Source of the DNA: a virus
DNA: 57,107 nucleotides
UHGV virus genome: UHGV-1334481
Direction: 5' to 3' (one strand)
The position numbers were made by a program, and so were the translations under genes. Under the pieces are notes generated by a model. The model was not told where the DNA came from. It did no database searches and saw nothing but the letters and a program-made list of their open reading frames with translations. This document shows positions 32,649 through 42,913 of the stretch, piece after piece. Position 1 is the stretch's first letter; every line of letters starts with the position of its first letter.

Positions 32649-32906
32649 ATGAAAACTTTCAAAGAGTTTGCTGCAAAAACTACTATCACTGAATCTTCCC
32701 ACGGTATGGAAGTAAAGCTTGGAATGGCTTTAGCTGAAGCTGAGCGTCTTTTCTCTCGTATTAAAGAACTTGCTGCTGCAGTCGATCCTTCATCTTTTAA
32801 AGGAGACCAAACTAAAGTTAAAGCACTTTTAGCATTATGCTCCGATGCAGGAGAAATTGCTAAAAATGGTTCTAAGATGAAGAAACGATTAGAAGATTTA
32901 AAATAA
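32649..32906 (+). CDS. internal-protein-like protein with capsid targeting sequence (ipI locus)
   Basis: 85 aa; N-terminus MKTFKEFAAKTTITE matches the MKTYQEFIAE-type CTS/gp21 cleavage motif (memory); AGGAAA RBS. Confidence 0.6.
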   Translation: MKTFKEFAAKTTITESSHGMEVKLGMALAEAERLFSRIKELAAAVDPSSFKGDQTKVKALLALCSDAGEIAKNGSKMKKRLEDLK

Positions 32907-32918
32907 TTTCACAAAGTT

Positions 32919-32948
32919 GCTTACATAGGGTTTTAGTTGTGATACTAT
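32919..32948 (+). promoter_or_regulatory. T4-type early promoter (near-identical copy of the 32589 cassette)
   Basis: -35 gcttac and -10 gatactat; flanking sequence almost identical to 32577-32630. Confidence 0.55.
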
Positions 32949-32985
32949 TACCCTATCAAAACAAAACAATCGAATGGAAACTAAA

Positions 32986-33282
32986 ATGAAAACTTTCAAA
33001 GAGTTTATCGCTGAATCTTCTGATGTAAAAGTTGAGTTTATTTACACCGGCAAGAAAGATAAAATGGGTGAAATGCCTCATGGAGTTCTTCGTGATGCAT
33101 TAGATAATTTCGGTCAACTCGCCGCAGAAGATTACGGTGATAAAATTGTTGTTACTGGTCCTGCTGCAGTTATTGAAAAATGGGCAGCAGAAAATAAATC
33201 AATTTTTCGTAAAAAAATAAGTTTACTTTTAGATGGGGTAGTGATACTATTACCCTATCAACTACTGAGGAGAATAAAATGA
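32986..33282 (+). CDS. internal-protein-like protein with CTS; 3' end reads through the downstream promoter
   Basis: MKTFKEFIAESS... from ATG 32986; frame passes an A7 run (33211-33217) and ends at TGA overlapping the next ATG; with A6 it would stop at ...SIFRKK. Confidence 0.5.
   Translation: MKTFKEFIAESSDVKVEFIYTGKKDKMGEMPHGVLRDALDNFGQLAAEDYGDKIVVTGPAAVIEKWAAENKSIFRKKISLLLDGVVILLPYQLLRRIK
33221..33250 (+). promoter_or_regulatory. T4-type early promoter
   Basis: -35 gtttac and -10 gatactat, followed by GAGGAG RBS and ATG 33279. Confidence 0.55.
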
Positions 33283-33464
33283 AATGTTGTGAATTAATTC
33301 GAAATGTTGCTATTGCAATTTCTGCTTCCGCTTTCAGTTTTTCAATGTTTGTTGGATTTATATGCGGATTATTGACTACGGCAGAAAATGTTTTTTCACT
33401 TGTAGTAGCATTTTTAATTGGTTTAATTGCTATTGTTATGGATAAAATTTCTAAAGGTGAATAA
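33279..33464 (+). CDS. small hydrophobic membrane protein
   Basis: 61-aa ORF with two hydrophobic segments; strong GAGGAG RBS. Confidence 0.55.
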   Translation: MKCCELIRNVAIAISASAFSFSMFVGFICGLLTTAENVFSLVVAFLIGLIAIVMDKISKGE

Positions 33465-33862
33465 TGAACGTTGAATATTATGTATATGCGGATTACGAAA
33501 ATAATCCGTCTAAAGATGAAGATAATCGTTTAGGTGTAGATGCTTTCGATTCCCCTGCGGCGGCATGGCAATGGGTTGAAAGAACCGATATTCCTTACCG
33601 TTATATTGAAGTGGTTGACCACGCAGGAAACAAGTATCCTAAGGAAGCATATGTTCCTTCCGGGAAGGTAAATTTCCTTTTGTTTGCAGGTGATAATTAT
33701 TATCCCCGTGGTGGGTATACCGATTTAATTGCTAAAGCATTCTCTGAAGATGAACTCCGTGACATTATCAAAGAAAATGAAAACAAACCGATGGATTCTA
33801 ATCGCTTTGATTGGTGGCAAATCGTAAATGCTAATACTCACACTATTGTTGATGAAGGCTGA
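33464..33862 (+). CDS. hypothetical protein
   Basis: 132-aa ORF; start overlaps the upstream stop (translational coupling). Confidence 0.6.
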   Translation: MNVEYYVYADYENNPSKDEDNRLGVDAFDSPAAAWQWVERTDIPYRYIEVVDHAGNKYPKEAYVPSGKVNFLLFAGDNYYPRGGYTDLIAKAFSEDELRDIIKENENKPMDSNRFDWWQIVNANTHTIVDEG

Positions 33863-33864
33863 TA

Positions 33865-34155
33865 ATGATTCTTTATGCGAAAGTATCATCCATTGAAAAT
33901 GGATATAAATATGATCAAGACGCGGCTAAAGCTTTGATTGATGATTATGGCATTTTAACATGTTTTGAAGTTGAAAAGGTTTACATTGACCGTTCATCTT
34001 CTCAAGTTAAATTAGTGAAGGAAGAACGTAAATTTAATACAGTAAATTTTGATTTCTTTATTGAAACAGAAAAAGGTCCTCTTGAATATGATATTTTCAA
34101 GAATCCTTTGGGTCTTGAATGTATTAAATATACTTACATTAACGCAGCGTGGTGA
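33865..34155 (+). CDS. hypothetical protein
   Basis: 96-aa ORF tightly packed after the previous gene. Confidence 0.55.
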   Translation: MILYAKVSSIENGYKYDQDAAKALIDDYGILTCFEVEKVYIDRSSSQVKLVKEERKFNTVNFDFFIETEKGPLEYDIFKNPLGLECIKYTYINAAW

Positions 34156-34158
34156 AAA

Positions 34159-40501: not shown

Positions 40502-40986
40502 TTTTAAAAACTCGCTGGTATGATTTAGATGATGGGGACGATGGCATTTCAGTTGATAGAGTTGACTGGAGCGGCTGTTCTGAAGATACAAAGAAACGAT
40601 TAATTAGGGAGTTTAGAATGGGATATCAAGCAGTTAAGCCATCTACTGTAACAGATGATAAATTCGTGTGTATTCATAATGGTCGTGCTAAGTTAACGAA
40701 TGCTGAATGGTTCACAGATAAGATTATGATTCTGTGGTATATCATTAGTCTTCCTGTGTCATCATTCGTATTTTACTTTTTTATAAAAAATCCAATGGAC
40801 AGAATAGGAGATTGGATTCTTTTAACCATACTTGTTAATATTTTTACAGCATCAATATTATCAGGAATATGGTACATGTTCATTGAAATGCCATGGCGGA
40901 TGCGCAGACAACAAAAGATTTTTGATGAAAAGAAATATGCTCAAAATTTAAATAATTTTATCACTGAATGCAGGAAATTAAAATGA
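40498..40986 (+). CDS. small membrane protein (member of a tandem trio)
   Basis: 162 aa, hydrophobic segments; ATGA start/stop overlap with neighbours. Confidence 0.6.
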   Translation: MILKTRWYDLDDGDDGISVDRVDWSGCSEDTKKRLIREFRMGYQAVKPSTVTDDKFVCIHNGRAKLTNAEWFTDKIMILWYIISLPVSSFVFYFFIKNPMDRIGDWILLTILVNIFTASILSGIWYMFIEMPWRMRRQQKIFDEKKYAQNLNNFITECRKLK

Positions 40987-41423
40987 AAACACTATCAGCT
41001 GGTATTATCTTTATGACAGAAGATAAAGATTTATTTATGGGACGAGTTACTGGTTCTCGTAAACATGGAATGATGGCACATCGCTGGGATATTCCAAAGG
41101 GGCGTGTAGAAAGTTCTGATTTAAGCGCACTAGATGCAGCACGAAGAGAATGCTTAGAAGAGACTGGCTTTAGCAATTATAATCCAGACCTTCTAGAAGA
41201 CTTAGGTGTATTTAAATATTCTAGTAATAAAGACTTACAGTTATTTTATTATACGATTCCAGTAGAGCATGAGATGTTTAGAAATTGCCATTGCGAGTCT
41301 TATTTTGAAAATAAAGATGGCGTTATGATTCCAGAGATGGATGCTTTTGCTCTTATTCCTCGTACTCAGTGGCAATATGTGATGGGCCCTTCACTTTACC
41401 GAATAATGAACAGCCTCTTTTAA
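40983..41423 (+). CDS. nudE: Nudix hydrolase NudE (e.1)
   Basis: Nudix box GRVESSDLSALDAARRECLEETGF; start at ATG 40983 coupled to the upstream stop; about 147 aa (T4 e.1 is 151 aa). Confidence 0.8.
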   Translation: MKTLSAGIIFMTEDKDLFMGRVTGSRKHGMMAHRWDIPKGRVESSDLSALDAARRECLEETGFSNYNPDLLEDLGVFKYSSNKDLQLFYYTIPVEHEMFRNCHCESYFENKDGVMIPEMDAFALIPRTQWQYVMGPSLYRIMNSLF

Positions 41424-41459
41424 TTTATAAATACCTTCTATAAATACTTAGGAGGTATT

Positions 41460-41954
41460 ATGAATATATTTGAAATGTTACGTATAGATGAAGGTCTTAG
41501 ACTTAAAATCTATAAAGACACAGAAGGTTATTACACTATTGGCATTGGTCATTTGCTTACTAAAAGTCCATCACTAAGCGTTGCTAAATCTGAATTAGAT
41601 AAAGCTATTGGGCGTAATTGTAATGGTGTAATTACAAAAGATGAGGCCGAAAAACTCTTTAATCAGGATGTTGATGCTGCTGTTCGCGGAATTCTGAGAA
41701 ATGCTAAATTAAAACCAGTTTATGATTCTCTTGATGCTGTTCGCCGCTGTGCATTGATTAACATGGTCTTCCAAATGGGGGAAACCGGCGTAGCAGGATT
41801 TACTAATTCTTTACGCATGCTCCAACAAAAGCGTTGGGATGAAGCAGCAGTTAACTTAGCTAAAAGTAGATGGTATAATCAAACACCTAACCGCGCAAAA
41901 CGAGTTATTGCAACGTTTAGAACTGGCACTTGGGACGCGTATAAAAATCTATAA
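41460..41954 (+). CDS. e: lysozyme (endolysin) e
   Basis: 164 aa, [35 protein letters not shown]...; differs from T4 lysozyme at about 3 positions (memory). Confidence 0.97.
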
Positions 41955-41958
41955 AGTT

Positions 41959-41988
41959 GTTTACTTTCTCCTAGAATTGTGATAGTAT
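41959..41988 (+). promoter_or_regulatory. T4-type early promoter with -10 inside an 8-bp inverted repeat
   Basis: -35 gtttac, -10 gatagtat; perfect inverted repeat aattgtga/tcacaatt (41975-41982 / 41991-41998). Confidence 0.5.
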
Positions 41989-42013
41989 ATTCACAATTAC
42001 TTGGAGGGATAAA

Positions 42014-42430
42014 ATGACTCGTATTAATTTGACTTTAGTATCTGAACTTGCTGATCAACATTTAATCGCAGAATACCGCGAATTGCCACGTGTTTTTGGT
42101 ATAGTTCGTAAACATGTAGAAAATGGTAAGCGGGTTAAAGATTTTAAAATATCTTCTGAGTTTATTTTAGGTTCTGGTCATGTTACGTTCTTTTATGATA
42201 AGTTAGAATTTTTGCGAAAGCGTCAATCAGACATTATAGCGGAATGCTTAAAACGTGGGTTTAGTATAAAAGATACTGAAGTTCCTGACATCAGCGATAT
42301 TCCAGCAGAATGGAAAAATGATTATAACCCATGCAAATCAGCTATTAAGTTGAGTCAACAACGACTCGATGAAAAAATTTTAATGAAGCCACACTGGTAT
42401 AAATACTACGGCAAAAATATTTACATTTAA
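42014..42430 (+). CDS. denV: endonuclease V (pyrimidine dimer DNA glycosylase) DenV
   Basis: 138 aa, [29 protein letters not shown]...; matches T4 endo V length and sequence (memory). Confidence 0.93.
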
Positions 42431-42439
42431 AGGAAACAC

Positions 42440-42913
42440 ATGAAAACATATCAAGAATTTATCACTGAAGCAGCTATTAATTCTCAAATTATCGCTGAAT
42501 CTTTTACTGATCTTTTGAAATTTAAAAAAGGTCAAAAAATCACTGCTGTATTGGATGATGGTACAGAAGTTGAGATGGATGTACAGGGATATAATTATGC
42601 AGTAGATGGAAAACTGTATAATAAATCTCACGCTAAATTTGATTCATTTGACGACTTTGTTAATACGGTTGAAGATGAAAAAACTCGTAGATCCATTGCA
42701 ACTGGCGACGCTAAGGTTCTTATGGCACACGGTCATGAACGTATCCGCGCCAAACAGAATAAAATGGGTGAAGATAATTTCGCATTAGTTGGTTATCAAT
42801 CTGGTAAACAAACTTATGGTTATCAGCGTACTGCTACCATGTATAACAAAAATGGTAAAATCGCTTTCGTGAATAGCAAAGGTTCTATTCAGTACGTCAA
42901 ATCATTCAAATAA
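42440..42913 (+). CDS. internal-protein-like protein with CTS
   Basis: 157 aa, N-terminus MKTYQEFITEAAI (CTS-like); adjacent to denV. Confidence 0.6.
   Translation: MKTYQEFITEAAINSQIIAESFTDLLKFKKGQKITAVLDDGTEVEMDVQGYNYAVDGKLYNKSHAKFDSFDDFVNTVEDEKTRRSIATGDAKVLMAHGHERIRAKQNKMGEDNFALVGYQSGKQTYGYQRTATMYNKNGKIAFVNSKGSIQYVKSFK

Follow-up and report, generated by a model that had tools for sequence, protein, structure and literature searches.

Five dispersed genes with a capsid-targeting-like leader as probable internal head proteins of a Tequatrovirus

Introduction

What do small, dispersed phage genes encode when their products share a start of some ten residues and nothing beyond it? The question is raised by UHGV virus genome UHGV-1334481, from which we analysed a stretch of 57,107 nucleotides (nt), here called the window. 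Five open reading frames (ORFs) on its + strand, starting at 32649, 32986, 36249, 36849 and 42440, all begin MK(T/S)(F/Y)x(E/Q)F. An initial annotation, made from the letters of the DNA, took this start for a capsid-targeting sequence (CTS) like that of the T4 internal proteins IPI, IPII and IPIII, and proposed that the phage packages a cargo set of its own with possible anti-defence functions. The window belongs to Tequatrovirus: its best megablast matches are genomes of this genus (query 32000-43500; 1055 phage records), with Escherichia phage UGKSEcP2, which has all five genes, the closest record at 98.7%. We put the probability at roughly 80% that the five genes encode T-even-type internal proteins, that is, non-essential head cargo that is co-injected with the DNA and most probably serves an anti-defence role.

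The phenomenon itself, variable cargo behind a common leader, has been established since 1994 and is textbook T-even biology. Polymorphic sets of T-even internal proteins with a common CTS, numbering 'at least 10', go back to Repoila 1994 (as cited in PMC12373910, PMC3012670 and PMC2839356), and more than 30 internal protein (Ip) variants with only the leader in common are attributed to Comeau 2007 (as cited in PMC2839356). Most of the present finding is ordinary, since Ip names already exist for three of the five genes. The modestly new part is the identification of 36249 and 36849 as candidate members at a third site, and these two may already be among the more than 30 variants.

A common leader on five unrelated proteins

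All five genes of the initial annotation are present, with a CTS-like N-terminus at the start assigned to each. The N-termini read MKTFKEFAAKTTITE (32649), MKTFKEFIAE (32986), MKSYAQFLNEAVLNE (36249), MKTYAEFLTE (36849) and MKTYQEFITEAAINSQIIAE (42440), in every case from the initiator methionine of a small ORF with an AGGAA/GGAAA-type Shine-Dalgarno sequence 7-10 nt upstream. A six-frame translation of the 57 kb window contains the core MK[TS][FY]x[EQ]F five times, against an analytical expectation of 0.008; none of 200 shuffles contained it. For a measure independent of the window, every Met-initiated 10-mer was scored by BLOSUM62 against the experimentally defined CTS of T4 IPIII, MKTYQEFIAE. 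This CTS motif search, which the initial annotation had suggested as a check, separates the five (scores of 30-47) from all other ORFs (at most 23, the runner-up being a 33-codon junk ORF); T4 IPI itself scores 29. When the T4 control region was scanned in the same way, ipIII (51), ipII (51) and ipI (29) came out on top, with the next match at 19.

According to the account in PMC9026906 (targeting after Mullaney & Black 1996), the determinants of the T4 CTS are mainly residues 4 and 7 for targeting and residues 8 and 10 for processing, and the ten-residue IPIII leader is enough to package foreign proteins (PMC9026906). In the window, position 4 is F, F, Y, Y and Y in gene order and position 7 is F in all five leaders. 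The (L/I)xE site stands at residues 8-10 in four of them (IAE in 32986, LNE in 36249, LTE in 36849 and ITE in 42440). The full ten-residue pattern of the initial annotation thus holds for these four and fails for 32649, which has K rather than E at position 10 and an ITE at residues 13-15, comparable to the ITE at residues 17-19 of T4 IPI.

The window also encodes the two head-assembly proteins on which such leaders would act, both on the - strand. The prohead core serine protease gp21 (3048..3686; PF03420 Peptidase_S77, E = 1.5e-111) is the enzyme expected to cut the leaders, and the scaffolding core protein gp22 (2208..3017; PF25623 T4_CASP, E = 4.3e-90) is expected to be the structure to which a CTS directs cargo. 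Given near-consensus leaders in a phage with gp21 and gp22, packaging is therefore expected whatever the origin of the DNA, because ten IPIII residues suffice for it. The presence of the published determinants in the leaders, of both head-assembly genes in the window, and of internal-protein names on three of the five genes together supports the initial reading of these N-termini as a gp21-processed CTS.

Behind the leader, the five proteins have little in common. As first proposed, the bodies are unrelated (E > 0.09 in all pairwise BLASTP comparisons). Their sizes had been given as 85 to 187 amino acids (aa); of these, the 98 aa of 32986 and the 97 aa of 36249 look like frameshift artefacts (77 and 157 aa in relatives). 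The leader codons differ synonymously among the five genes (Thr as ACT, ACC or ACA; Glu as GAG or GAA), which suggests selection on the peptide rather than recent gene conversion. The predicted mature forms are 7.4-19.7 kDa, and four of the five are basic (isoelectric point, pI, 9.1-9.6) and lysine-rich, similar to T4 IPI-III. Family matches are strong (E from 1e-37 to 1e-102) and all five recur in hundreds of phage genomes, while Pfam and NCBIfam searches with the five proteins gave nothing useful except DUF7412 for the product of 42440.

The likeness to T4 thus extends over a near-identical leader, MKT(Y/F)(Q/K)EF..(L/I)xE, small size, a basic charge in four of the five and the presence of gp21 and gp22, and it includes position: two of the genes occupy the place of ipI after 57B, and 42440 lies in the e...vs.8 region with an ipII-type 5' flank. 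The differences are that the window has five CTS genes where T4 has three, that two of these lie between rnaC/rnaD and e.8, and that no IPI, IPII or IPIII body is found in the window, which agrees with the proposal of a cargo set different from that of T4. In a search with the T4 Ips by tblastn, the window gave leader-anchored matches only; the best paired ipII with the product of 42440 at 33% identity over 79 aa, leader included (E = 1.5e-4), and with the leader removed it fell to E = 0.094.

A close relative, Escherichia phage vB_VIPECOOM01 (L001, locus 1147-12259), has six leader genes, namely Ip5, a PHROG 8111 gene, both PHROG 2280 genes, an IPIII-like and an IPII-like gene. Across Tequatroviruses, the number of predicted internal proteins therefore ranges between three and six or more.

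Three carriers with internal-protein names

The gene at 32649..32906 (+ strand) encodes the 85-aa internal head protein Ip5. It matches PHROG 3499 'internal head protein' (E = 3.9e-49) and falls in the same 90% cluster as UniRef Q38630_BPT6 'Ip5'. The gene is in the ipI position directly after 57B, and its 80 nt of upstream sequence are nearly identical to those of T4 ipI. From the displaced ITE, its leader is predicted to be cleaved after E15.

The product of the neighbouring gene, 32986..33282 (+ strand), matches PHROG 8111, a family of internal virion proteins, over residues 1-77 (E = 7e-51). The first ATG given by the ORF finder is at 32974, and relatives annotate the start at 32986. The 98-aa ORF of the window results from one extra A in an A-run near 33210-33217, before the stop; two close relatives, with otherwise identical DNA, have 77 aa, which is probably the real length of the product. 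This 77-aa form is labelled as an internal virion, head or core protein in many records.

The third gene, 42440..42913 (+ strand), encodes the internal head protein Ip4/IpIV, of 157 aa and family DUF7412 (PF24183, E = 5.7e-96; PHROG 3155, E = 6e-102). Its leader is MKTYQEFITE, and a further IAE site is present at residues 18-20. The protein is called Ip4 or IpIV in members of its cluster and in phages JK1 and PP01, occurs in 471 phage records, among them those of Klebsiella Jiaodaviruses, where it is about 68% identical, and equals g129 of Yersinia phage fD1. The gene lies between denV and vs.8, whereas ipII and ipIII of T4 lie between e and denV. On its 5' side it has the flank of T4 ipII, AAAAATATTTACATTTAAAGGAAACA, with 27 nt upstream equal, and downstream of Ip4 the sequence returns to the T4 denV-vs.8 spacer. 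In PP01 the order is e-ip10-ipIV-vs.8, without denV. Taken with the location of Ip4 after denV in the window, this arrangement indicates that the whole e...vs.8 interval acts as one cassette site.

The same junction is visible from the side of denV. At the 3' end of this gene (42371-42440) the last codons, GKNIYI*, come from the ipII-type flank of Ip4, where T4 has GKAIYA*, and the junction is the same in Yersinia phage phiD1. The case shows cleanly how an inserted cassette can rewrite the end of the gene beside it. A copy of TATAAATA, the T4 late-promoter consensus, at 42398 was considered as a late promoter for Ip4 and rejected: it lies within denV codons and is not kept in T4 (TACAAATA) or phiD1 (TATAAGTA).

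With Ip4-Ip10 and later variants the window has the following in common: 32649 is Ip5, 42440 is Ip4/IpIV, 32986 belongs to an internal virion/head family, and promoter/stem-loop cassettes flank the genes. That all three products, Ip5, the PHROG 8111 protein and Ip4, are packaged as internal proteins is in our view very probable.

Two candidates between rnaC/rnaD and e.8

The two remaining genes, both assigned to PHROG 2280 ('unknown function'), carry no internal-protein name in phage records, protein clusters, PHROG, Pfam or NCBIfam, a set of sources that does not cover the published lists of Ip variants. By tblastn, the 36249 family is present in 512 phage records and the 36849 family in 165, every one of which labels the latter 'hypothetical'; throughout both sets of records and the protein clusters, any other name is an obvious mis-annotation.

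The first candidate (36249..36723, + strand; leader MKSYAQFLNE(AVLNE)) belongs to a family of 157 aa. It is frameshifted in the window, with a run of eight A (A8, 36523-36530) against A7 in relatives; ORF 36249-36542 accordingly encodes 97 aa, and the rest of the gene is found in ORF 36454-36723. Frameshift variants at the same site also occur in other public genomes, at 97, 93, 111 and 108 aa (P0021, P0067, P0065 and P0068), beside the 157-aa form. They could be a homopolymer sequencing artefact or mark a site truly prone to slippage, which would leave the protein truncated behind its N-terminal domain. The 157-aa form would mature to a protein of 15.5 kDa and pI 9.6, with a predicted N-terminus at A11 (AVLNEASSTEIQAVAK) or A16.

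The second candidate (36849..37412, + strand; leader MKTYAEFLTE) belongs to a family of 187 aa. Its predicted mature product, starting at A11 (AAKLPSEADLTK), has 177 aa, 19.7 kDa and a pI of 9.5, close to the 20.4 kDa and pI 9.65 of IPIII. The common PHROG number, and a similar C-terminus hinted at by MAFFT, had suggested that 36249 and 36849 are paralogues. This was rejected: BLASTP and hhalign lend no support to homology of the bodies, and in the profile-profile alignment the 10-aa leader alone aligns.

In the 36249 family the leader is kept as the body drifts. Homologues begin MKTYNEFLNE, MKSYAEFLTE, MLEYSEFLKE (Yersinia phage fHe-Yen9-01) and MKFKEFLAE (Klebsiella phages); F7 is invariant over the family, and the leader is retained in homologues of other genera that are 42-44% identical. 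Models of both PHROG 2280 families by AlphaFold2 are all-helical and of low to moderate confidence (predicted local distance difference test, pLDDT, of 61 for 36849 and 73 for the 36249 family). In both, 12-15 disordered residues at the start lead into a small N-terminal domain, which a linker joins to a long helical hairpin. Searches of the BFVD by Foldseek with both families returned only their own relatives and no functional lead.

Packaging is likely for the 157-aa family; for the 187-aa family we lean towards the same view with less assurance. The proteins are of practical interest, as they lie outside the loci where ip genes are looked for and are annotated 'hypothetical' only. Flagging them would improve the annotation of hundreds of T4-like phages that are therapeutic candidates, and adds two proteins for screening.

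Promoters and terminators at the loci

The genes at the ipI position are set among three copies of a 71-nt cassette on the + strand. The first, upstream of Ip5 (32561..32631), contains an early-type promoter, TTTACA-17-TACTAT (promoter-like site at 32590-32618; direct repeat family D1), overlapped by a stem-loop. The second, upstream of 32986 (32891..32961), is 83% identical, and the third, 3' of 32986 and 5' of the trna.4-like gene (33193..33263), is 62% identical. Promoter/stem-loop elements have been reported at IP loci, where the repeats were proposed to drive shuffling (PMC2839356), and the 71-nt cassettes agree with them.

A different repeat organises the PHROG 2280 segment, a stretch of 1.2 kb that is not in T4: the alignment to T4 rnaD/rnaC ends at 36203 and resumes at 37421. 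Three 40-nt terminator cassettes on the + strand, with GGGCTTTTT in common, bound and divide it. The first hairpin ends the rnaC-like RNA (36168..36207) and is followed by TATAAATA (36201-36208), 48 nt before the start codon of 36249. The second cassette (36728..36767), 90% identical, lies between the two PHROG 2280 genes, and the third (37415..37454) forms the right boundary of the segment. The arrangement of hairpin plus TATAAATA is kept in three Tequatrovirus relatives and in Klebsiella phage KP1 (Jiaodavirus), in which the hairpin sequence itself is different and the 36249 homologue is only about 44% identical. The 36249 family thus has a conserved late promoter.

Both kinds of repeat recall the promoter-early stem-loop (PeSL) cassettes of RB49/phi1, short regulatory repeats on either side of small accessory genes of hyperplastic regions, whose gain, loss and exchange such repeats probably mediate (PMC2839356). 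They differ from these in that the ipI locus of the window has T4 early-type promoters with AT-rich stem-loops, whereas the repeats around the PHROG 2280 genes are terminator hairpins with the common motif, one of them followed by a late promoter.

Whereas 32649, 32986 and 42440 fall in the recognised IP loci (57B-tRNA or e-denV/vs.8), 36249 and 36849 fall in neither. It is possible, at less than even odds, that the interval between rnaC/rnaD and e.8 is a third, so far unrecognised T-even internal-protein locus with two new Ip families. The same tentative reading would make the locus one or two terminator-bounded cassettes, with the 157-aa family spanning at least Tequatrovirus, Jiaodavirus and fHe-Yen9-01. 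If it is true, both families are fresh candidates against defence systems for which a phage counter-measure is not known.

Proposed mechanism and competing explanations

In the mechanism that we propose, the N-terminal CTS, by its aromatic residue 4 and its Phe 7, would give the precursor affinity for the scaffolding core of gp22 while the prohead assembles. The gp21 protease would then cut after the Glu of the (L/I)xE site, at residue 10 in four proteins and at residue 15 in Ip5. The mature protein of 7-20 kDa would remain with the packaged DNA and enter the cell with it, where it would most probably neutralise a host defence directed against the incoming DNA with glucosyl-hydroxymethylcytosine (glucosyl-hmC), as Ip1-3 of T4 do against three GmrSD enzymes. 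Each gene would be an exchangeable cassette in which a regulatory element and a ribosome-binding site precede the leader and a variable body, an organisation that would explain why each Tequatrovirus has a different set.

The last step leans on work with T4, in which Ip1, Ip2 and Ip3 were found in 2025 each to inhibit one distinct GmrSD type IV restriction system, without cross-protection (PMC12373910). The anti-defence suggestion of the initial annotation is reasonable because each of these three inhibits a different enzyme of this kind. The five proteins would share with the GmrSD inhibitors IPI*, Ip2 and Ip3 the delivery route, if the leader works, as well as the genus and the type of modified DNA to be protected; they differ from them in having no similarity of sequence or fold. 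The leader that T-even Ips share is 10-19 residues long, and given the 2025 result every further protein that bears it becomes a ready-made anti-defence candidate. For any given one of the five, action against host defence is possible, at somewhat less than even odds.

Virion evidence comes from Yersinia phage fD1. In the analysis of purified fD1 by liquid chromatography with tandem mass spectrometry, g129 ('Head protein, PPAP'), g140 and g146 were particle-associated (PMC8309999 Table S3; dataset PXD026812). The 157-aa g140 is nearly identical to the full-length product of 36249, and g146 is IPI-like. DenV, lysozyme e and NudE appear on the same particle list, in which 11 of the 32 genes from g110 to g141 carry the label 'PPAP' (PMC8309999). 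As the list is non-specific, we count the detection of g140, g129 and g146 as weak support. The paper on Yersinia phages fPS-65/fPS-90 is without a virion proteome.

The breadth of that list is one of several points that weigh against our interpretation. Packaging, cleavage, injection and an anti-defence role are inferred for this phage, not directly observed in it. One mature product, that of 32986, is near-neutral (pI 6.5). The site of 36249 and 36849 is outside both published IP loci, and the relevant text of PMC2839356 places IP genes in two loci only and says that they are absent elsewhere in T-even genomes. Further points concern the 187-aa family: it is narrow (at least 89% identity in the protein search); no exact TATAAATA is found within 300 nt upstream of 36849; we found no virion data for it in the literature; and its fold search returned its own family only, to which it added a protein of RB69 at 88% identity over 136 columns and one of fHe-Yen9-01 at 24% (E = 9.9e-4). 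On function, none of the five bodies is similar to T4 Ip1, Ip2 or Ip3 (body BLASTP E > 0.09), and no relatives in the Protein Data Bank (PDB) were found for the three searched, namely 36849, the 36249 family and Ip4. When ip4-10 were assayed against representatives of 15 GmrSD groups, there was no reproducible interaction (PMC12373910, main text and Supplementary Fig. 9). Neither protein of PHROG 2280 belongs to the ip1-10 set named in that study, and we found no test of them against GmrSD in the literature.

This last result for Ip4-10 would also suit a different role for proteins that are packaged and injected as we propose: their main contribution could be physical, in charge neutralisation of the DNA, organisation of the genome or aid to ejection. 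The basic, lysine-rich composition of four of the five mature forms fits such a role, as does the report that lysines of T4 internal proteins touch DNA phosphates, with about 1000 copies lying within the DNA (PMC3012670). Against this, the three T4 Ips studied have all turned out to be specific inhibitors of defence nucleases (PMC12373910). A purely physical role would account neither for the extreme turnover, among close relatives, of bodies that are unrelated, nor for the near-neutral product of 32986. We consider it unlikely that the physical role is the main one, and keep it as a live alternative or additional role.

It is improbable that the shared 5' ends are recombination linkers and nothing more, so that some carriers, particularly the PHROG 2280 proteins, would be cytoplasmic accessory proteins that are never packaged. 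The repetition does extend to the DNA, where ribosome-binding site plus leader are 83% identical over 46 nt between 32649 and 32986 and 76% over 42 nt between 36249 and 36849. In addition, the 27 nt that Ip4 shares with T4 ipII even form the last codons of denV, repeated regulatory elements have been proposed as drivers of shuffling at IP loci (PMC2839356), and both PHROG 2280 genes are outside the two recognised loci. A linker that happens to encode these ten residues should nevertheless act as a leader, as those of IPIII do on foreign proteins (PMC9026906). The leaders of 36249 and 36849, moreover, differ synonymously and conservatively, with the residue classes at positions 4, 7, 8 and 10 kept, and the retention of the leader in 42-44%-identical homologues of other genera, the conserved late promoter (TATAAATA) of the 36249 family and the finding of fD1 g140 in particles likewise speak against the linker view.

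That chance or faulty gene calling accounts for the ORFs or the motif, as the aberrant lengths of two of the five in this assembly might suggest, is already refuted by the excess of the motif over expectation, by the ribosome-binding sites, strong family matches and recurrence in hundreds of genomes of all five, and by the tracing of the length anomalies to single-base homopolymer indels.

Genomic context

The internal-protein interpretation is set in a gene order that corresponds to the T4 map in reverse. On the + strand, from 31165, the genes are gp1, 57A, 57B, ORFs 32649 and 32986, trna.4/.3/.2-like genes and nine tRNAs, followed by the rnaD/rnaC-like segment, ORFs 36249 and 36849, e.8 to e.2, nudE, e, denV, 42440 and vs.8. 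At the left end of the window, the - strand carries gp23, gp22, gp21, gp68, gp67 and the portal gene gp20.

The essential gp20 (4350-5935, - strand) is split into ORFs 5597-5935 and 4350-5588. A 351-nt query over the junction aligns with 352 nt of intact portal genes in relatives, which corresponds to a 1-nt deletion and is most likely an assembly error. Because gp20 also carries a 1-nt deletion, assembly indels are the simplest explanation for the odd lengths of 32986 and 36249.

The tRNA cluster (34761-35492) has nine genes (Gln, Leu, Gly, Pro, Ser, Thr, Met, Asn and Arg), compared with ten or eleven in close relatives, where Tyr and His are extra, and eight plus segB in T4. As the counts differ among near-identical phages, the tRNA block is variable too. 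Between tRNA-Arg and the rnaD/rnaC segment lies an ORF of 116 aa (35509-35859; PHROG 3355 in relatives) that is not in T4. The adjoining stretch, 35860-36203, is 94% identical to T4 rnaD/rnaC, the small stable RNAs (species 2 and 1) downstream of the tRNA cluster.

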